From NCBI GenBank assembly GCA_041660065.1, contig JBAZXC010000005.1, positions 292-64,291 on the forward strand: a stretch of DNA of 64,000 nucleotides, given 5' to 3'. Positions 4,384 through 64,000 of this stretch are shown here, piece after piece. The notes under the pieces are model-generated. The model worked only from the letters and a program-made list of their open reading frames with translations, was not told where the DNA came from and ran no database searches. The position numbers and the translations under genes are program-made. The first letter of the stretch is position 1. Each line of letters starts with the position of its first letter. This DNA comes from Parcubacteria group bacterium. Its GTDB lineage: Bacteria; Patescibacteriota; Minisyncoccia; Moranbacterales; GCA-2747515.

Positions 4384-5796
4384 TTATGACCGTTTTGGTA
4401 ATATGTGCATTATATCATTGTGTGTGACAATGCGGAAGAAAAAAAGAAGAAAAAGATAAACGACGATGGCAATGCATGTACTAAAAACATGTGGCAGAGG
4501 AAGGAAAAAGAGCAAAATTGCCATAAGTTCGCCAGAAAGAATGATAAAAGGGAGTCTGATGTCTCCGCAAACAAATGGTGTGAGACGCTTTGTCATAATG
4601 ATCGCCACAAAAGCAACAAAAAATTCCGTAATCACAGAAACGATTGCTGCGCCGGTATAGGAATACAAATAGATAAAAATGCCATTCGCAACGATGTTAA
4701 GGAGTGCTGCAAAAAAAAGAGCATACATAAGTACTTTTTGATGTGCGCCAGCGATGAGAATGTTGGTAAAGAGTTGTCCAAAAAATACGCATGCAAGTGC
4801 AAAGATGAGTATTTGCAATACAGGGGCTGCATCATGAAAATCCGGTCCACCGACAATAGCGATAATCTCCGGCGCAAGATAGACCGTGCAAATGACAAGG
4901 GGTATGAGAATAATTGTGAAAAGTTTGATAATGATCGTTGTGATCTTATTGAAAATTAAAATATCCGAAATAATATAGCGGGACAGGAGAGGAAAAATCA
5001 GTCCGACAATCATTGCAGGAAAAAAAATAAGCGTTTCAATGATCTTATAAGCAGCGCCGTAGATGCCAACATCGCTTTGAGATTGCATAAAAGAAAGCAT
5101 GATTGCATCAAATTTAAAATAAAGAAAGGTGATGATAGCACTGATGCCCATAGGAGCGGATTCTTTGAGGAATTTTTTCCAGTAGACGCTATCAGGGATA
5201 AAAGATATTGTGACATAAGAACGAGTAACAAAGAAAAGAATGATAAAATTCCAGAACATTGTGGCTAAAAGAGAAATGGCCACAGCGGTGAAGCGCAGAT
5301 GTAGTGTGAGAACAAGTACGATTGTAAAAACCTGAATGATTTTCCCGGATAATTCAACGAGGGCAACGCGATCCATGGCGATATGTTTTTGAAAAACACC
5401 ATTAAGAAGTCCATAACCAGAGGAGAAAATGAAAGCGGCACAAGCAATGAGAATGCTCGTTTTTACATCCGTAGTATAGGGCAAAAACCATACAAAAAAT
5501 GTGCTGAGGAGAAAAATTACGCACGAAATGATCATGCGCAGCGTGAACACTCTGCTCATAATCCATGATTCATCAGCACCGTCCCGAGAAATGTCTCGTG
5601 TTGCGATTGGATAAAGGCCAAAATCACCAATTGCGGAGAAAAAGGCAAAAAAGGCAAGCATGGTCGTGTATTTACCAAAGCCTTCTGTGCCAAGGTATCG
5701 CGCTAACATGCCGATGGCAAAAAGTGCCAGTGCAATGGATATCACTTTTGTTATGACATTGAAAATGATATTATAGGAAATCTTTTGTGCGATCAT
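4384..5796 (-). CDS. Wzx-like polysaccharide/oligosaccharide flippase (MOP superfamily, Polysacc_synt)
   Basis: 470-aa protein with about 12-14 TM helices, organised like the Wzx/RfbX/SpoVB family. ATG at 5796 overlaps the jag stop. Confidence 0.6.
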   Translation of the reverse strand: MIAQKISYNIIFNVITKVISIALALFAIGMLARYLGTEGFGKYTTMLAFFAFFSAIGDFGLYPIATRDISRDGADESWIMSRVFTLRMIISCVIFLLSTFFVWFLPYTTDVKTSILIACAAFIFSSGYGLLNGVFQKHIAMDRVALVELSGKIIQVFTIVLVLTLHLRFTAVAISLLATMFWNFIILFFVTRSYVTISFIPDSVYWKKFLKESAPMGISAIITFLYFKFDAIMLSFMQSQSDVGIYGAAYKIIETLIFFPAMIVGLIFPLLSRYIISDILIFNKITTIIIKLFTIILIPLVICTVYLAPEIIAIVGGPDFHDAAPVLQILIFALACVFFGQLFTNILIAGAHQKVLMYALFFAALLNIVANGIFIYLYSYTGAAIVSVITEFFVAFVAIIMTKRLTPFVCGDIRLPFIILSGELMAILLFFLPLPHVFSTCIAIVVYLFLLFFFRIVTHNDIMHILPKRS

Positions 5797-6281
5797 AAAG
5801 ACTGCATAATGCCACGTGGTTTAACAATAACTTTTCGATCATCTTTCTCGCCAATGCTTTCAGTCTCTACGCGCATATCACCGCTGATGGTCGTGTGGAC
5901 AATGCGTCGTTCATAGGCATTCATCGGTCGAAGAATGATCGGCTTTTTTTCACGATGTGCTTGATCGGCCGCATCTTTGGCAATATGCGTGATCATGCGA
6001 TCCTTATCTTCCTTATAACCATTGATATCCAGATTGATGCGCTCCAAAAAGCCATCTTTGTTGAGGATCGATCGAATGATGTGTTCAAGTGCATAAAGAT
6101 TTGATCCATGTTGTCCAATGAGAAATCGTGAGTCTTTCTGCGTTTTAAGAGAGCATAAAAATGTTTTTACATCTGTTTTTGAGTCGATCTCTTCTTTGAT
6201 TGATATTGTGGCGTCAGAAAAGTCCATGAGATGGAGAATTTTTTCTATGCTAGCCTCAATGATTTCGTGGGGATTACTCAT
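5793..6281 (-). CDS. khpB: Jag/KhpB RNA-binding protein (KH + R3H domains)
   Basis: 162 aa with a C-terminal R3H motif 'NAYERRIVHTTIS'. Lies immediately downstream of yidC, as in the canonical rpmH-rnpA-yidC-jag operon. Confidence 0.7.
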   Translation of the reverse strand: MSNPHEIIEASIEKILHLMDFSDATISIKEEIDSKTDVKTFLCSLKTQKDSRFLIGQHGSNLYALEHIIRSILNKDGFLERINLDINGYKEDKDRMITHIAKDAADQAHREKKPIILRPMNAYERRIVHTTISGDMRVETESIGEKDDRKVIVKPRGIMQSL

Positions 6282-6296
6282 AATGTTTGTTGATAA

Positions 6297-7058
6297 TTAC
6301 GTGTTATCTTTTGTGGAGGACAGCCGTTTTTCTTTGTGTATAACAACCCATTGTTGTGCGATCATAAATGCGGTTGATGTAAGCCAATAAATTGCCAGTC
6401 CGGAGGGAAATTTCAATCCGATAAATAATGTCATGATTGGCACAATAAAAAGCATTTGTTTTTGCATGATTGTTGCAAAATCTGGAGTAACGTCTTTTTC
6501 ATCTTGTTTTTTTACAGCGGCGACTTGTAGCGCTTGTTTTGTTTGCATCATTTTTAGCTGATAAAATTGTGCCAATGCGGTTATGACAGCTATTGGAATG
6601 AATGGTTCGGTAATATTCATAAAACCGAGAAACATTTTGTTAAGGTCTTGAGGGAGGAAAACAAAAGAGGAATACAAATTTTCTGCATGAATTGCGAGGT
6701 CGGGGCTACTGGAGAGATTGACGATCACGCGATACATAGTGATAAAAATGATCATCTGGACAATAAGAGGGAGACATCCTGCTGCAGGATTGACTTTATG
6801 CTCACGGTAGAGAGCCATTGTTTCTTTGGAGAGCTTCTCCTTGTCATCCTTATATTTTTTTTGTAGTTCCTTGATTTTTGGCTGAAGATCCTGCATCTCC
6901 TTTTGAGACTCGATTTGTTTGCGAGAGAGGGGTATAAGTGCAAATTTTACAGCCAATGTTAAAACAATGATTGCAACACCAAAATCTCCAAAAATGTTAT
7001 AGAGAATAATAAGTATGTTATAAATCGGTTGATAGATGAGTACAAAAAAAATGTGCAT
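6297..7058 (-). CDS. yidC: membrane protein insertase YidC (short form)
   Basis: 253-aa membrane protein in the conserved position between rnpA and jag, with a YidC-like C-terminal TM region. The short form lacks the large periplasmic domain. Confidence 0.75.
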   Translation of the reverse strand: MHIFFVLIYQPIYNILIILYNIFGDFGVAIIVLTLAVKFALIPLSRKQIESQKEMQDLQPKIKELQKKYKDDKEKLSKETMALYREHKVNPAAGCLPLIVQMIIFITMYRVIVNLSSSPDLAIHAENLYSSFVFLPQDLNKMFLGFMNITEPFIPIAVITALAQFYQLKMMQTKQALQVAAVKKQDEKDVTPDFATIMQKQMLFIVPIMTLFIGLKFPSGLAIYWLTSTAFMIAQQWVVIHKEKRLSSTKDNT

Positions 7059-7077
7059 AATGATGTAATCTTATATA

Positions 7078-7413
7078 TTAAATGAGTTTTGCTTGAGAAA
7101 AAAGCGCTGAAAGTGTAGCGCAGGCTTCCCTATATGGTAACACTTTACCACGATTTGTATAGGAGATCACGATATCGTATCCGGGAGCAAGATTGAGAAG
7201 ATGTGTATGCAGTGCTGCATAAAGAACGCGCCTTTGTCTATTGCGTTTCACTGCGCTGGGGGAATATTTTTTCCCCACAACATATGCGATGTGTGAGTGT
7301 GGACTATTATTGGGTAAAAAAAATAGCAATGCACCACCAAAATAGTGGCGCTTGCCTTGTGAATATAGAGAAGAAAATCGATATGTGTGCAGTCGATGTG
7401 GTTTTGTAATCAT
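7078..7413 (-). CDS. rnpA: ribonuclease P protein component
   Basis: 'HRLHTYRF' and RNR-type basic motif 'VKRNRQRRVLYAAL'. Directly downstream of rpmH. ATG at 7413 chosen; a TTG at 7437 is also possible. Confidence 0.7.
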   Translation of the reverse strand: MITKPHRLHTYRFSSLYSQGKRHYFGGALLFFLPNNSPHSHIAYVVGKKYSPSAVKRNRQRRVLYAALHTHLLNLAPGYDIVISYTNRGKVLPYREACATLSALFSQAKLI

Positions 7414-7445
7414 AAACAAAAAAATAAAGACTTGCAACGAATCTG

Positions 7446-10535: not shown

Positions 10536-10838
10536 ATGAAAGGGATCAAATCATACATTCAAAAAAAGAAAAAAAATGCGCAGGCAATCCGCAAAGAAAA
10601 TATTTCCGTCGATGATCAAACGATCATGCATCTTTTTTCACGTGCAGTACGAGAAGAATATGGCAGACAAGGTGAAAAAAATATTGTACCAAAATTATAT
10701 AAAAATGGACTGATTTTTATCAGTATTCATAACGCGATCTGGGCGCAGGAAATATGGTTGCGTCGGGATTTTTTTGTCGAAGCTCTTAACGAAAAAATCG
10801 GACGCAAGGTTGTGAGAGGAATAAAAATCGCCACATAA
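10536..10838 (+). CDS. DUF721/DciA-like protein (possible helicase-loading factor)
   Basis: Basic 100-aa protein translationally coupled to dnaN. Its position and size match the DUF721/DciA genes found next to dnaN in many bacteria. Family assignment from memory only. Confidence 0.4.
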   Translation: MKGIKSYIQKKKKNAQAIRKENISVDDQTIMHLFSRAVREEYGRQGEKNIVPKLYKNGLIFISIHNAIWAQEIWLRRDFFVEALNEKIGRKVVRGIKIAT

Positions 10839-43641: not shown

Positions 43642-43681
43642 TAGATTGGTAGACATTTAGACAGGTAGATTAGTAGACCAG
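43642..43681. repeat. array of five 8-bp-phased TAGAC/TAGAT pentamers (left member of an inverted array pair)
   Basis: Five consecutive 8-bp units: tagattgg, tagacatt, tagacagg, tagattag, tagaccag. Lies just upstream of the rpsT promoter (TTGCCA-17-TAAAAAT on the minus strand). Confidence 0.6.
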
Positions 43682-43751
43682 TGAAAGGGTGTATTGTAAA
43701 TATTTTTTTGCGTATATCCATAATGTAGTGGTACACTTGTGATAGAAAGCA

Positions 43752-43780
43752 TTGCCGTTTTAATGATAATTTTGTATACT
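43752..43780 (+). promoter_or_regulatory. putative ruvA promoter (TTGCCG-17-TATACT)
   Basis: -35 at 43752-43757, -10 at 43775-43780; this would place the right array in the 5' UTR. Confidence 0.35.
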
Positions 43781-43784
43781 TTTT

Positions 43785-43824
43785 GTCTACATTTCTACTA
43801 GTCTAAATGTCTAACAGTCTAAAA
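43785..43824. repeat. array of five 8-bp-phased GTCTA pentamers ending 1 nt before the ruvA ATG (right member, inverted relative to 43642..43681)
   Basis: Five consecutive 8-bp units: gtctacat, ttctacta, gtctaaat, gtctaaca, gtctaaaa, then the ATG at 43826. No Shine-Dalgarno sequence. Confidence 0.6.
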
Positions 43825-61221: not shown

Positions 61222-61569
61222 TCAGTGCGTCAGTTCTTTTTCATTGAGAATTCTCTCAATAGTGTCGGCAGAGGAAAAGATCCTCTCGACAGTTGCACGA
61301 AATCGCCCAAGTGAGCAATGATTGATGCGGAGCACACAATAAGGACGTTGATCCATGTGATCTTTTGCATCTGTGAGATGGATGAATATAAATCCCTCAT
61401 ACGGTCGCGCGGATTTTTTGTAAAGCCGCTGCGGATCCTTGATCTTTCGGCAGTAGACCTTCAATGCAATGTGGGTAAATCCACAAAAATTTGCGAGAAG
61501 ATCAGTAGGAATTGCAGCTTTTTTCCTTTTGATAACTTGGGCGCGACGTAGCATTTTGGGTTCAGGCAT
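61222..61569 (-). CDS. hypothetical protein, paralog of 61693..62031
   Basis: Shares 'IPT(D/E)...W/FTH..I...Y.RK' and 'GF(I/V)FI(H/F)L' blocks with its neighbour; ATG 61569 chosen. Confidence 0.45.
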   Translation of the reverse strand: MPEPKMLRRAQVIKRKKAAIPTDLLANFCGFTHIALKVYCRKIKDPQRLYKKSARPYEGFIFIHLTDAKDHMDQRPYCVLRINHCSLGRFRATVERIFSSADTIERILNEKELTH

Positions 61570-61692
61570 ACAGAGCTCCTTTGTTGGAATGATGGTAAAA
61601 AACGGGTTTTTATGATATGAGCATAATGCCAATCACTTTCTGTGTCAATAAAGTAAAACCCGTATCGTGTTCGATGCGGGTTTTGTAGGGGT

Positions 61693-62031
61693 TTAATTGA
61701 ATGCGCGTACAAGAGAATTATCCATATTTGTCGTGAGGCCGCGCACGTAACTTGCAAAATTTCTCCGTGTCATGCGTTTGATCTCGATCGTTCGTACAGG
61801 TTTTGCGTGTACGATGCCATTTTCTCTAGCGAGAAAGATGAATACAAAACCGAGAACTCTGCGAGATGTAATGAGCTTTCCTTTTGTGCTTTGTTTCTTC
61901 ACGCGTTTGTGATATGCGCAGATCTGGAAATGCGTCCATTTGGGAAAGCGTGAAACTATTTCAGTGGGAATAATGGGACATTCCGCATACACACACGCTT
62001 TTTCCAGAGCTTCCTTTCGAAGTAATGTCAT
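61693..62031 (-). CDS. hypothetical protein, paralog of 61222..61569
   Basis: 112-aa ORF immediately downstream (3' side) of tRNA-Leu on the same strand. Confidence 0.45.
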   Translation of the reverse strand: MTLLRKEALEKACVYAECPIIPTEIVSRFPKWTHFQICAYHKRVKKQSTKGKLITSRRVLGFVFIFLARENGIVHAKPVRTIEIKRMTRRNFASYVRGLTTNMDNSLVRAFN

Positions 62032-62234
62032 CGGTTACTCCTCATGTTTTGTGCATTATTGCATTTGTAAATGAACCGGATAATAAAAAAATCGCACGAC
62101 GCGAATTTTTTGTGTTGTATATTTTTATAAACACAAAAACCTCAAAAAGAGATTTTTATGTTTATTGTGCTGGAGACCCTCCTTCGCCGAAGGCTTCGGC
62201 AGGGCGAGGGATGATTTATGTATTTTTGTATTTG

Positions 62235-62318
62235 TGCTGGAGAGAGGACTTGAACCTCCACAGGATTGCTCCCGCCAGGGCCTAAACCTGGTGCGTCTAC
62301 CAATTCCGCCACCCCAGC
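62235..62318 (-). tRNA. tRNA-Leu(UAG), class II with long variable arm; 3' CCA not encoded
   Basis: Reverse complement reads GCTGGGGTGGCGGAATTGGTAGACGCACCAGGTTTAGGCCCTGGCGGGAGCAATCCTGTGGAGGTTCAAGTCCTCTCTCCAGCA. It has a 7-bp acceptor stem, a Leu-type D loop, anticodon loop UUUAGGC (anticodon UAG), and T loop GGTTCAAGTCC. Confidence 0.85.
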
Positions 62319-62424: not shown

Positions 62425-62721
62425 CTAGTGTATAAGTCCCTTCACGCGAGTCGCTTCTTGTTCCAGAGCGGGAGACTCTTCATATTCGCCGTGATGGCGG
62501 GTATCGTCACCGTAGGTGTATTTTTTGTGGTCAATGTGAAAACTGATATTGAGATCGCGTCCGGTGAGTGTCACATACATGTGGAATCGTGGAAAACCAC
62601 TACTGCCCATGATACGGACAAAGCTCATCTCGTTGTCTGCTGTATAGTGTTGAAATGTATATCCGGCACGTCGCAATGCCACGGCAGGATTTGTGGAAAT
62701 GTTTGGAATTGTGAAACGCAT
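62425..62721 (-). CDS. hypothetical 98-aa protein (start abuts the phased pentamer array, no SD)
   Basis: Protein-like composition (MRFTIPNIS...). The overlapping plus-strand ORF 62266..62745 runs through the tRNA and is low-complexity, so the minus-strand ORF is preferred. Confidence 0.35.
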   Translation of the reverse strand: MRFTIPNISTNPAVALRRAGYTFQHYTADNEMSFVRIMGSSGFPRFHMYVTLTGRDLNISFHIDHKKYTYGDDTRHHGEYEESPALEQEATRVKGLIH

Positions 62722-62726
62722 AAAAT

Positions 62727-62766
62727 TAGTATGTTAGTATATTAGACTTGTAGTATTGTAGTATAT
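62727..62766. repeat. array of five 8-bp-phased TAGTA/TAGAC pentamers (left member, locus 2)
   Basis: Five consecutive 8-bp units: tagtatgt, tagtatat, tagacttg, tagtattg, tagtatat. On the minus strand the array ends 5 nt before the ATG of the 98-aa gene. Confidence 0.6.
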
Positions 62767-62790
62767 GAATTTTTAAATTTATTTTTTTTA

Positions 62791-62830
62791 GTCTACTTTT
62801 CTAAAAGTCTATTCGTCTACCCATCTAGCT
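62791..62830. repeat. array of five 8-bp-phased GTCTA/TTCTA pentamers (right member, locus 2), overlapping the cca stop codon
   Basis: Five consecutive 8-bp units: gtctactt, ttctaaaa, gtctattc, gtctaccc, atctagct. Separated from the left array by a 24-bp A/T spacer. Confidence 0.6.
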
Positions 62831-64000
62831 GACCCAATGTTTTTTCTTGATGTCTTGATCTTCTTCACATCTTTTTTCCTCGATCTTATCCTTTGCAAGA
62901 TTTACCAGTGTAGCAAGGTTTTCATCTTTTAACAAGAGTGCGCGCGCAGAAAGTTGCTCCAGTGTGTTCTTTGCAGGGTTATCGATCACTTCAGCGAGAA
63001 GTACGTTCAGAATTGCACCAATCTGGGGTCCGGGAGTGAATTTGAGGTCTTTGATCATGATATCACCGTTGAGCTTGAGCATTTTGACGCTGACGGGGTC
63101 ATGGGATACTTTGTCGATCATGTATTCAAAATGGCGCAATTTATAGGGTTTTGCCTTTTTTGTGCCCGAACCGAGTCTGTCTCCGATGCGTACGTCCATG
63201 AGATCTTTCATATTTTCCAATCCGACTTTGGTGATGATACGGCGTACTGCTGTTTCCGTCACTTCGTCCACACTGTAGTAGAACATGTGGTTGCGCACCA
63301 GCAGAACTGTTTTATCGATTACTTTTTTAGGGAATTTCAAACGATGAAGAATTGTTTTGGTCATGCGAGCACTGATGTATTCATGGTTATAGAAAGTGCA
63401 ATCGCGTCCGGTACCTTGTTTGGCTTCCGGCTTGCCGATGTCGTGAAAAAGAGTTGCGAGACGCACCTCCAATTTTTTGCTCGGGCATGTTTGCACTGCT
63501 TGGAGACTGTGCTCCCATACAGTCAGTGTATGGTGGTGATTTTGCTCGACGTCGACCCCATGTATGAGTTCGGGGAGAAAATGCGTGAGGAGGCCAGTGT
63601 CATAGAGCATTTGTATGCCGTGTGCCACATGATCGCTCATGACGATCTTGGTGAATTCATCTCGGATGCGTTCCATAGAAACGTGCATAAGCAAAGCATC
63701 TTTTTCTTTGATTGCGTTGAAAGTGTTTTCTTCAATAGTGAAATTCAACCGTGCGGCAAATCGTACGGCACGGATCATGCGCAGGGCATCCTCTTCAAAG
63801 CGTTCTTGCGGATCGCCGACACAGCGGATGATGTGATCACGCGTGTCTTTTTGCCCGTCAAATGGGTCGATGAGGTTGTTGTTGATATCAAGTGCGAGTG
63901 CATTCATCGTAAAGTCTCTACGAGAAAGATCTTCCATGAGCGTCTTGGCAAATTGCACATCATCCGGTCGTCTGCGATCGGAATATGTGGATTCAATGCG
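62825..64000 (-). CDS. cca: CCA-adding enzyme / poly(A) polymerase family tRNA nucleotidyltransferase with C-terminal HD domain (5'-truncated by the window edge)
   Basis: 'DDVQFAKTLMEDLSRRDFTMNALA' head-domain motif and an HD domain ('LFHDIGK'). The reading frame stays open to coordinate 64000, so the N-terminus lies outside the window. Confidence 0.8.
   Translation of the reverse strand, partial: RIESTYSDRRRPDDVQFAKTLMEDLSRRDFTMNALALDINNNLIDPFDGQKDTRDHIIRCVGDPQERFEEDALRMIRAVRFAARLNFTIEENTFNAIKEKDALLMHVSMERIRDEFTKIVMSDHVAHGIQMLYDTGLLTHFLPELIHGVDVEQNHHHTLTVWEHSLQAVQTCPSKKLEVRLATLFHDIGKPEAKQGTGRDCTFYNHEYISARMTKTILHRLKFPKKVIDKTVLLVRNHMFYYSVDEVTETAVRRIITKVGLENMKDLMDVRIGDRLGSGTKKAKPYKLRHFEYMIDKVSHDPVSVKMLKLNGDIMIKDLKFTPGPQIGAILNVLLAEVIDNPAKNTLEQLSARALLLKDENLATLVNLAKDKIEEKRCEEDQDIKKKHWVS

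Follow-up and report, generated by a model that had tools for sequence, protein, structure and literature searches.

Two inverted arrays of five 8-nucleotide (nt) units lie at positions 62727-62830 of the 64-kb stretch of Parcubacteria group DNA analysed here (the window), at the junction between the 3' end of cca and a gene for a 98-amino-acid (98-aa) protein. We read this locus, with a probability of about 0.55, as a miniature copy or remnant, devoid of an open reading frame (ORF), of an S23p-type intervening-sequence-like (IVS-like) selfish element. Full IVS elements are known from 23S rRNA genes, in which a small S23p gene, encoding a pentameric four-helix bundle, is bracketed by two complementary arms; paired in the transcript, these give a terminal stem, the target of RNase III in the rRNA cases. 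Tandem units of 7 or 8 nt typically make up the arms of S23p elements, the 5' arm being rich in purines and the 3' arm consisting of complementary, pyrimidine-rich units; such elements also occupy intergenic operon spacers, extending from the upstream stop codon to just before the next start. The locus at cca (locus 2) shares this anatomy, i.e., a period of 8, inverted arms, a purine-then-pyrimidine order, a stop codon within unit 1 and a gap of 5 nt to the next ATG. A twin at 43642-43824 (locus 1), between the divergent rpsT and ruvA genes, has two arms that appear to be of the same kind and that we likewise read as ORF-less. This arm signature (7-8-nt units, purine then pyrimidine) was derived in the present analysis, outside the published definition of an IVS, and is displayed by the arms in the window.

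Anatomy and non-randomness of the arrays

Read on the minus strand, the upstream (5') arm of locus 2 is agcTAGAT gggTAGAC gaaTAGAC tttTAGAA aagTAGAC, five units that are rich in purines and follow an 8-nt period, and the downstream (3') arm is atATACTA caATACTA caaGTCTA atATACTA acATACTA, five pyrimidine-rich and G-poor units at the same period (purine fractions of 0.67 and 0.47, respectively). At the RNA level, the layout is (UAGAY-N3)x5, a 24-nt A/U loop and (KWCUA-N3)x5. The array letters given in a preliminary description of this DNA were matched exactly (Table 1), as was its minus-strand order of a TAGAY-type array, a spacer, a TACTA/GTCTA-type array, 'atttt' and the ATG of the 98-aa ORF at 62721-62719. 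The right array does include the cca stop, as described, but the overlap is small and comprises AGC, the final sense codon, plus the stop codon itself (TAG, 62825-62827), with no more of cca. That TAG is the TAG of the first upstream-arm unit, in an arm that carries TAG in all three frames. In relatives without arrays, cca terminates at the same codon position, but with TAA; in the window, the 65 ORFs taken as genes end in TAA 44 times, TGA 12 times and TAG 9 times.

Runs of at least three TAG or CTA triplets at fixed periods of 4-12 nt were sought across the whole 64-kb window, with expectations taken from Markov-1 shuffles. Exactly four were present, all with period 8, all of exactly five units and together forming two inverted pairs; the period-8 expectation was 0.08, no run occurred at any other period from 4 to 12, and none of 300 shuffles yielded even one 4-of-5 array. 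With four runs against 0.08 expected, chance is ruled out, as had been argued in the preliminary description, and the single architecture that it ascribed to both loci holds, namely 5 + 5 units in 8-nt phase, with equal polarity and an ATG that follows within 1-5 nt. Pentamers containing TAG or CTA fall well below the base-composition estimate in the window (GTCTA, 27 observed and ~69 expected).

Taken on the CTA strand, the CTA triplet is invariant in 20/20 units and is preceded by T (16) or A (4). The 3-nt unit spacers are variable, with a single G in 60 spacer bases, and their identity is 4/12 between loci and 4-8/12 between arrays. That all 20 CTA/TAG triplets stand in perfect 8-nt register despite spacer drift suggests that the units are under some constraint. 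Functionless low-complexity DNA, i.e., tandem duplications produced by slippage or template switching in free intergenic space and then left to neutral decay, is an unlikely source of this pattern. It would suit the rapid turnover of the arrays among relatives, their unit-number polymorphism (L003 vs L004, below), their placement in gaps between functional elements, and the abundance, in other genomes and in viruses, of simple 8-bp microsatellites built on this core. Uniform decay cannot, however, yield 20/20 invariant CTA triplets beside near-random spacer positions; nor would this explanation account for exactly five units in all four arrays with no shorter runs, for the retention of arrays at orthologous sites as loops become unalignable, or for a consistent association with one gene family (S23p). 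Permissive DNA-pattern scans of genomes and metagenomes gave mostly microsatellites among the matches listed, a viral pattern scan gave only perfect tandem repeats, and BLAST of the two loci against plasmids and phages gave A/T-rich noise only.

On a transcript carrying cca, the 98-aa gene and tRNA-Leu, the upstream arm would terminate cca translation and the downstream arm would form a G-poor, unstructured stretch before the 98-aa start. Arm-to-arm pairing appears to have largely decayed in locus 2, which makes RNase III processing there doubtful. The constraint on the units may be recognition by an S23p ring encoded elsewhere in the genome; candidate roles of the arms are an RNase III stem in the course of decay and a place where such a pentameric ring docks.

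Periodic arms at S23p genes and at orthologous junctions

Because some of the earlier loci had been picked by their repeat pattern, a sample of S23p genes was assembled irrespective of repeat content (n = 13), comprising 11 plasmid genes collected by protein similarity (Cyanobacteria, Azospirillum, Gemmatirosa and Riemerella) and the genes of L003 and L282, both found through other proteins. Across the 110 nt upstream and 110 nt downstream of each gene, the strongest autocorrelation period was 7 or 8 nt on both flanks in 12/13 cases, the flank-to-flank duplex reached z < -2 in 9/13, and the 5' flank was purine-richer than the 3' flank in 11/13. The unit itself varies by element (GCTAAAA, GGCAGAA, GGTGACA, GGGAAGA, GAGGACG, CTCCTGCC and others), so that the TAG core is a local flavour and not a general rule. 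An S23p gene of Azospirillum located inside a 23S rRNA gene (L294) has 7-nt periodic complementary flanks. On cyanobacterial plasmids, S23p genes with periodic arms were also seen between co-directional cas genes (L286, L292 [cas6/cas4] and L288 [cas10/cmr3]); in L286, both flanks are long same-orientation 7-nt arrays, (GCTAAAA)x15 upstream and (GCCAAAA)n downstream.

Two relatives of the window organism carry S23p genes in informative positions. A run scan over the loci of all relatives revealed three additional 7-nt arrays in L282, flanking a 110-aa TIGR02436/PF05635 '23S_rRNA_IVP' gene that lies between nrdA and nrdB, which are adjacent genes in other relatives. On the sense strand, a (GTAG-N3)x14 array, whose second unit contains the stop codon of nrdA, is followed by the ORF, (CTAC-N3)x9, 'aaaaat' and the nrdB ATG (5 nt after the 3' arm); the two arms can pair with each other over the intervening ORF (z = -4.2). 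The orthologous 7-nt arrays at the cca junction have a GTAG-type unit like that of these arms. In L003 and its counterpart L004, a 115-aa TIGR02436 gene is found between cca and the 98-aa gene, at the very site of the window loop, following (TAG-N4)x8 (x7 in L004). Further TIGR02436 genes, detected by tblastn and hidden Markov model (HMM) across all sequences collected for the analysis, directly adjoin arrays in L011 (Flavobacteriales), L060 (Gammaproteobacteria), L056 (a Desulfobacterales metagenome-assembled genome, with two such genes) and L062 (Verrucomicrobiota), the arms of the last pairing with z = -4.4.

The preliminary description had proposed conservation at orthologous loci as a check on the arrays, and the outcome is divided: they persist in the closest relatives (86-91% protein identity), yet their period (7 vs 8), flavour and unit number shift, and they vanish further out. 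In L127, from the same organism, the junction is identical to that of the window. In L125 (98-aa identity of 91%), the 5' arm starts from the cca stop and consists of TAG-N4 units (7 nt), and the 3' arm of CACTA/TACTA units at 8 nt ends in 'gttt ATG'. L126 (86%) is arranged in the same way, with TAGATTT TAGCAAG TAGTTAG TAGTGAG TAGACAT as its 5' arm, such that the two arms of one locus differ in period (7 and 8); in both L125 and L126, the downstream arm is retained as four to five CACTA/TACTA units. At 77% identity, L003 and L004 have eight and seven TAG-N4 units, respectively, the first of which supplies the cca stop, then the extra gene, with no CTA array; L282 (also 77%) has a TAA stop for cca, no TAG array, and (CTA-N4)x4 before the ATG. 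The arms are therefore separable, with only the TAG array at the cca stop in L003/L004 and only the CTA array before the ATG in L282. Finally, L001, L283 and L284 (71-74%) have the same 98-aa gene and ATG, with a TAA stop, a 20-106-bp spacer and no arrays. Where arrays are kept at orthologous sites, the loops turn unalignable. L003 (9478-9533) and L004 (3408-3456) are near-identical contigs from different samples, yet their TAG-N4 arrays differ by one unit (8 vs 7) plus one TAG to CAG change, a polymorphism akin to the strain variation of the Coxiella IVS heptamers.

Another ORF-less case of candidate-phyla type is L170, in which the ileS stop lies in unit 2 and (TAGAC-N3)x4, a 16-nt spacer, (KWCTA-N3)x4 and 9 nt precede the rodA/ftsW ATG; its arms pair (z = -4.1). 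In broad DNA-pattern scans, similar arrays running from a stop codon to a start codon came up in Bacteroidota and other phyla. Many Flavobacteria-type genomes (L038, L051/L030, L105/L124, L110, L114, L252 and L007) have T(A/G)GAYT 8-nt arrays that set out at or on a stop codon, with the complementary array reaching up to the following ATG. None of these Bacteroidota loci showed an S23p gene within the 8 kb examined, and they may represent further ORF-less copies.

A published account treats the Coxiella 23S rRNA IVS as a selfish element, with inverted repeats at its termini that pair into an RNase III-cut stem and the S23p ORF in the loop; it bears 3-4 tandem heptamers (GACAGAT), strain-variable in number, before that ORF, and the S23p protein of Xanthomonas is a homopentameric toroid (PMC4990558). 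Avd, of diversity-generating retroelements (DGRs), is a homologous pentameric barrel (PMC6182149), and a single RNA stem-loop is touched by each of its five protomers in the structure of the bRT-Avd-RNA complex, via flipped-out bases between protomers (bioRxiv 10.1101/2023.10.23.563531). Solved TIGR02436 relatives, 2gsc (XCC0516) and 2rld, were each deposited with five chains. In the literature found, coverage of which is incomplete, we encountered no account of 7-8-nt periodic arms as a general S23p property, or of such elements in operon spacers, besides the Coxiella heptamers; with the same exception, arrays of this kind (approached via the motif, via 8-bp repeats in Flavobacterium/Patescibacteria and via TIGR02436) were undescribed in what was found.

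A broader proposal would join these observations, and we put it forward only tentatively, as something we consider rather improbable in its entirety: the arrays would be the natural ligand of the S23p/TIGR02436 pentamer, with one 7-8-nt unit per protomer or inter-protomer crevice and five units filling one ring; S23p elements would be widespread selfish cassettes; and ORF-less copies such as locus 2 would depend on service in trans. That every window array has five units, S23p being a pentamer, is suggestive. Since arms beside S23p genes have anywhere from 3 to >20 units, this ring-ligand idea is not our main claim.

Pairing, promoters and competing explanations

Several observations weigh against an S23p-type origin for locus 2 and its twin. 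(i) The stem that defines an IVS is weak, in that the 121-nt sense RNA of locus 2 folds no better than shuffles (z = -0.2) and the arms-only duplex has z = -2.8 against mononucleotide shuffles. (ii) No S23p/TIGR02436 gene or pseudogene was detected, by tblastn or HMM, between the arms or elsewhere in the 64-kb window. (iii) Arm homology is architectural and not alignable, because the period is 7 nt in L003, L125, L126 and L282 vs 8 nt in the window. (iv) The (TAG-N4)x8 array of L003 lies outside the stem that brackets its S23p gene, which is built by an inner repeat pair, so that the link of this array to S23p is one of adjacency and unit type only. (v) L011, L056, L060 and L062 were chosen by the repeat pattern itself (TCTA-N4 x5). 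(vi) A decaying relic leaves the constancy of CTA in 20/20 units unexplained. (vii) At the twin locus, substitutions rather than an insertion appear to have built up the in-phase array of the ruvA leader, along a series from L129 via L128 to the window, and (viii) the DNA between the twin arms includes promoter and box sequences kept in relatives without arm A.

There is, moreover, no rRNA in the window, and locus 2 lies between cca and a protein gene, not in a 23S rRNA helix (25 or 45); given that S23p genes with such arms lie between protein genes elsewhere, a 23S location may define only the classical IVS subset. Rfam (gathering threshold and E<=1) gave nothing overlapping either locus, with only tRNA reaching threshold in the window. 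A conserved RNA hairpin as the functional unit was rejected on two grounds: fold z-scores are inconsistent (-0.2 for locus 2, -0.85 for L125, -1.9 for L126, -4.1 for L170 and -6.3 for locus 1), and arms occur singly and with differing periods.

The twin locus is organized around promoters (Table 1). Arm A is located upstream of the -35 element of rpsT (TTGCCA on the minus strand, conserved), at a distance of 3 bp, leaving the conserved rpsT promoter (TTGCCA-18-AAAAAT) just outside the arm, and it is not present in the relatives L128, L129 and L133. The ruvA promoter, TTGCCG-17-TATACT at 43752-43780, is conserved and lies between the arms, as does a 41-bp window-specific insert that holds a minus-strand promoter-like site (43720-43693). 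Arm B starts 4 nt past the -10 element and stops 1 nt short of the ruvA ATG, thus making up nearly the entire ruvA leader, which by itself is unstructured. Compared with the reverse complement of arm A, arm B is identical at 23/25 pentamer and 7/12 spacer positions, and the pairing of these promoter-separated arms gives z = -6.3 and -11. Since its arms bracket conserved host promoters, the ruvA/rpsT locus is not a single (mobile) insertion. In L128 (87%), the ruvA leader has three in-phase units (GTCTA, ATCTA and TACTA) and a similar length, after an identical -10 TATACT; units are vestigial in L129 and absent from L133. A box of the form gtgaaagN...ggtacacttgt, ~20-30 bp upstream of the ruvA -35, is kept in all relatives (43682-43710 and 43722-43735 in the window, with equivalents in L128, L129 and L133). 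The L128 version, GGTACACTTGTTAC, resembles GTAC-N4-GTWC-type LexA boxes, and by its sequence the box may be a site for a ruvA regulator.

One competing explanation is that of double-stranded DNA operator arrays, in which a cooperative ribbon-helix-helix (RHH) repressor of the MetJ or omega kind, with one unit per dimer, would coat 40 bp on each side of the promoter region and control ruvA, rpsT and the 98-aa gene. We regard this as quite unlikely. It would explain the strict 8-bp period, the five units with conserved core and free spacers, the position of arm B over +1 to +40 of the conserved ruvA promoter with arm A abutting the rpsT -35, and the in-phase gain of the motif in the ruvA leader at unchanged length. 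In its favour also count the match of AGAC-nnn-T units to 5/8 positions of the met box, AGACGTCT, and the first GTCTA unit, which would be incomplete in the RNA because it overlaps the predicted transcription start. A rigid filament on B-DNA is, however, ill-suited to periods of 7 vs 8 in orthologous arrays, and of both 7 and 8 within L126, and a duplex binder would not impose avoidance of G on one spacer strand only (1/60). No RHH or other small DNA-binding protein was found among 22 small window proteins, ruvA, rpsT and the 98-aa gene make no coherent regulon, and the association with S23p genes would go unexplained.

A regulatory site in the RNA, recognized by a ring protein of another family than S23p (TRAP-/HutP-like), with one UAG/CUA triplet per subunit and control, through binding beside the AUG, over translation of ruvA and the 98-aa gene, seems to us very unlikely. 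The triplet core, variable spacers and fixed unit number would fit, as would the unstructured ruvA leader and a 3' arm that stops 1-9 nt before start codons; the 7-nt arrays of the relatives are (UAG-N4)n, which is the HutP site format, i.e., XAG with 4-nt spacers in two sites 12-17 nt apart (PMC2425495). Against this, the UAG and CUA arms occur on one RNA, where a single triplet reader would not bind both, the window spacing is N5 vs N4 for HutP and N2-3 for TRAP, arm A lies upstream of the conserved rpsT promoter, and no protein of such a family was seen among the window proteins scanned.

The inverted ends and the presence or absence of the arrays among relatives might also suggest a DNA transposon of the miniature inverted-repeat transposable element (MITE) type, with the arrays as terminal inverted repeats that begin with TAG and end with CTA where relatives have a TAA stop. 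We give this hardly any credence: no target-site duplication was seen, copies share only their pentamer cores (spacer identity of 4/12 between loci), the 'ends' of locus 1 enclose promoter DNA of the host that relatives without the arrays also conserve, and there is no associated transposase.

In the preliminary description, the arrays had been taken as a start-codon-linked signal substituting for a Shine-Dalgarno (SD) sequence, a view that finds no support: array-less relatives share the gene and its ATG, the arms are separable, and arm A, lying upstream of the conserved rpsT promoter, precedes no start codon at all. The accompanying statement that ruvA and the 98-aa gene lack an SD is true but uninformative, as an SD-like 4-mer precedes only 12/65 window genes, the majority having plain A/T-rich leaders; SD-less starts being the norm in the window, the trait does not single out these two genes. 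In a narrower form, the GUCUA/UACUA array alone would be an SD-independent translation-initiation enhancer directly before the ATG, for which the 8-nt direct-repeat omega leader of tobacco mosaic virus offers a precedent. The arrays are indeed G-poor and unstructured and stop 1-5 nt before the ATGs of SD-less genes. Such an enhancer is nonetheless highly improbable, given that SD-less starts without arrays are the rule (53/65 window genes), that orthologous genes use the same ATG without arrays, and that the upstream TAG arm, arm A and the S23p association would all lack an account.

Other candidates were tried and rejected. A three-frame stop wall as the sole function fits the non-3 period, the polarity and the stop in unit 1-2, but would not explain the strict periodicity, the five units or the keeping of CTA on the leader sense strand, and the arms of other S23p elements are without any TAG. 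A promoter composed of -35-like TAGAC and -10-like TATACT units is untenable, with the nearest pair 27 nt apart and no promoter found at locus 2 by scanning. A Rho loading site, primase CTA sites, a DNA uptake sequence, Chi and origin-like iterons were considered as well, with no test in their favour; GTCTA is under-represented.

Genomic surroundings, implications and known systems

Table 1. Features of the two array loci and of the genes at locus 2
Feature	Positions	Strand	Sequence or content
Locus 1, arm A	43642-43681	plus	TAGATtgg TAGACatt TAGACagg TAGATtag TAGACcag
Locus 1, spacer (103 bp)	43682-43784		conserved box gtgaaagNggtacacttgt, conserved ruvA promoter, 41-bp window-specific insert
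Locus 1, arm B	43785-43824	plus	GTCTAcat TTCTActa GTCTAaat GTCTAaca GTCTAaaa
tRNA-Leu(UAG)	62234-62318	minus	last of the cca / 98-aa / tRNA string
98-aa gene	62425-62721	minus	conserved Patescibacteria protein, function unassigned; directly downstream of the arrays, outside the element
Locus 2, left array (downstream, 3' arm in gene orientation)	62727-62766	minus	tagtatgt tagtatat tagacttg tagtattg tagtatat (plus-strand letters)
Locus 2, spacer/loop (24 nt)	62767-62790	minus	gaatttttaaatttatttttttta, A/T at 23/24 bases
Locus 2, right array (upstream, 5' arm in gene orientation)	62791-62830	minus	gtctactt ttctaaaa gtctattc gtctaccc atctagct (plus-strand letters)
cca, 3' part (CCA-adding enzyme)	62825-63958	minus	PolyA_pol, HD and tRNA_NucTran2_2 domains; gene continues past the ORF's first in-window start

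The 98-aa ORF, which the preliminary description had treated as a gene, is a genuine and conserved one, with 495 homologues, all in Patescibacteria/Moranbacteria-type metagenome bins; it lies between cca and, in this window, tRNA-Leu. Invariant residues of the family are R17, R18, G20 and Y21, P44, R45, F46 and H47, H62, and T74, R75, H76, H77, G78, E79 and Y80, a His/Arg/Tyr pattern that, judged from sequence, looks like that of an enzyme. No Pfam, NCBIfam or PDB sequence match was obtained for the protein, and its AlphaFold2 model (pLDDT 85) had no significant PDB fold match. It was rejected as the array binder in view of this lack of a family, PDB or fold match and of its wide occurrence in genomes without arrays.

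A 31-codon plus-strand ORF (MFFLDVLIFFTSFFLDLILCKIYQCSKVFIF) at 62838-62933, antisense to the cca 3' end, begins 8 nt past the right array and probably reflects no more than the opposite strand of the cca tail, which is rich in Lys and Glu. The 8-mer GGTAGACG is common to the tRNA-Leu(UAG) D-arm and the second upstream-arm unit (62808-62815); tRNA mimicry via this shared 8-mer was judged to be chance. Pfam gave no match for two adjacent minus-strand ORFs at 61222-61632 and 61693-62031 (136 and 112 aa), whose sequences (…YEGFIFIHL… / …VLGFVFIFL…) resemble those of paralogues; similar-sized genes are called at the corresponding place in L125. The first 11 kb of the window (5793-7437 and 10536-10838) hold rnpA, a Jag/KhpB-like R3H+KH protein and a DciA homologue, for which reason the window may contain, or lie close to, the region of the chromosomal origin.

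Proteins of the S23p/TIGR02436 family, to which Avd of the DGRs is most closely related, occur commonly in several phyla, including Cyanobacteria, Bacteroidota and Patescibacteria; to our knowledge, no function has been assigned to them, and discussion of intervening sequences has been confined almost entirely to their role as curiosities of rRNA. Were the arm signature general, ORF-less copies would be findable from sequence alone, the elements could be traced in operons, including between cas genes, and a five-fold ring reading a five-unit array would become directly testable. Were the broader proposal also true, S23p cassettes would constitute a previously unrecognized class invading transcribed spacers in rRNA, CRISPR-cas and housekeeping operons, insulated by arms that halt ribosomes in each of the three frames, whichever strand is read, and that form a stem for processing, with ORF-less copies open to co-option as leaders (as at ruvA) or trailers; this would afford a first functional handle on the large S23p family and on the origin of Avd. 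For the annotation of candidate phyla radiation (CPR) genomes, our reading accounts for repeat blocks at gene boundaries and warns against calling them promoters, operators or substitutes for ribosome-binding sites. The general arm signature of S23p genes may ultimately prove a more valuable outcome than the locus itself.

Among known systems, the 23S rRNA IVSs of Coxiella, Leptospira, Salmonella and Alphaproteobacteria are alike in having two complementary arms that bracket a loop, which may hold an S23p/TIGR02436 gene; ORF-less versions exist (e.g., in Salmonella). Locus 2 differs in lying between protein genes (cca and the 98-aa gene), in its 24-nt loop without an ORF and weak arm pairing, and in an upstream arm that doubles as the stop codon of the host gene. 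S23p and Avd are homologous pentameric four-helix-bundle barrels, and the Avd-RNA contact sets a precedent for a five-fold periodic RNA ligand; by analogy only, we infer that S23p might bind the arrays. Unlike in DGRs, there is no reverse transcriptase, template repeat or variable repeat at the window loci, and the ligand of Avd is an 11-bp stem-loop, not a tandem array.

HutP and TRAP sites resemble the arrays in having triplet cores at fixed short spacing, free spacers and two clusters with a short linker, yet the second cluster in the window is the complement (CUA), not XAG, and the spacing is N5. MetJ (8-bp) and omega (7-bp) operator units come in runs of 2-10, direct and inverted, and overlap promoters. 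Five 8-bp window units make 40 bp, as in the metF operator, but of the met box, AGACGTCT, which is palindromic, the window units conserve just one half (AGAC...T), and, in contrast to MetJ and omega sites, window spacers are strand-asymmetric and orthologous arrays change period; we know of neither family in Patescibacteria. Repetitive extragenic palindromes (REPs) and bacterial interspersed mosaic elements (BIMEs) are likewise intergenic, hairpin-forming, often just past stop codons and arranged in inverted pairs, and the GTAG motif recurs in CPR array units. REPs are, however, high-copy and conserved in sequence and have a REP-associated tyrosine transposase (RAYT), whereas here there are two loci per 64 kb with only a 5-nt core in common. 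On balance, locus 2 is best filed as an ORF-less, intergenic, S23p-type IVS-like element and not as a translation-start signal.

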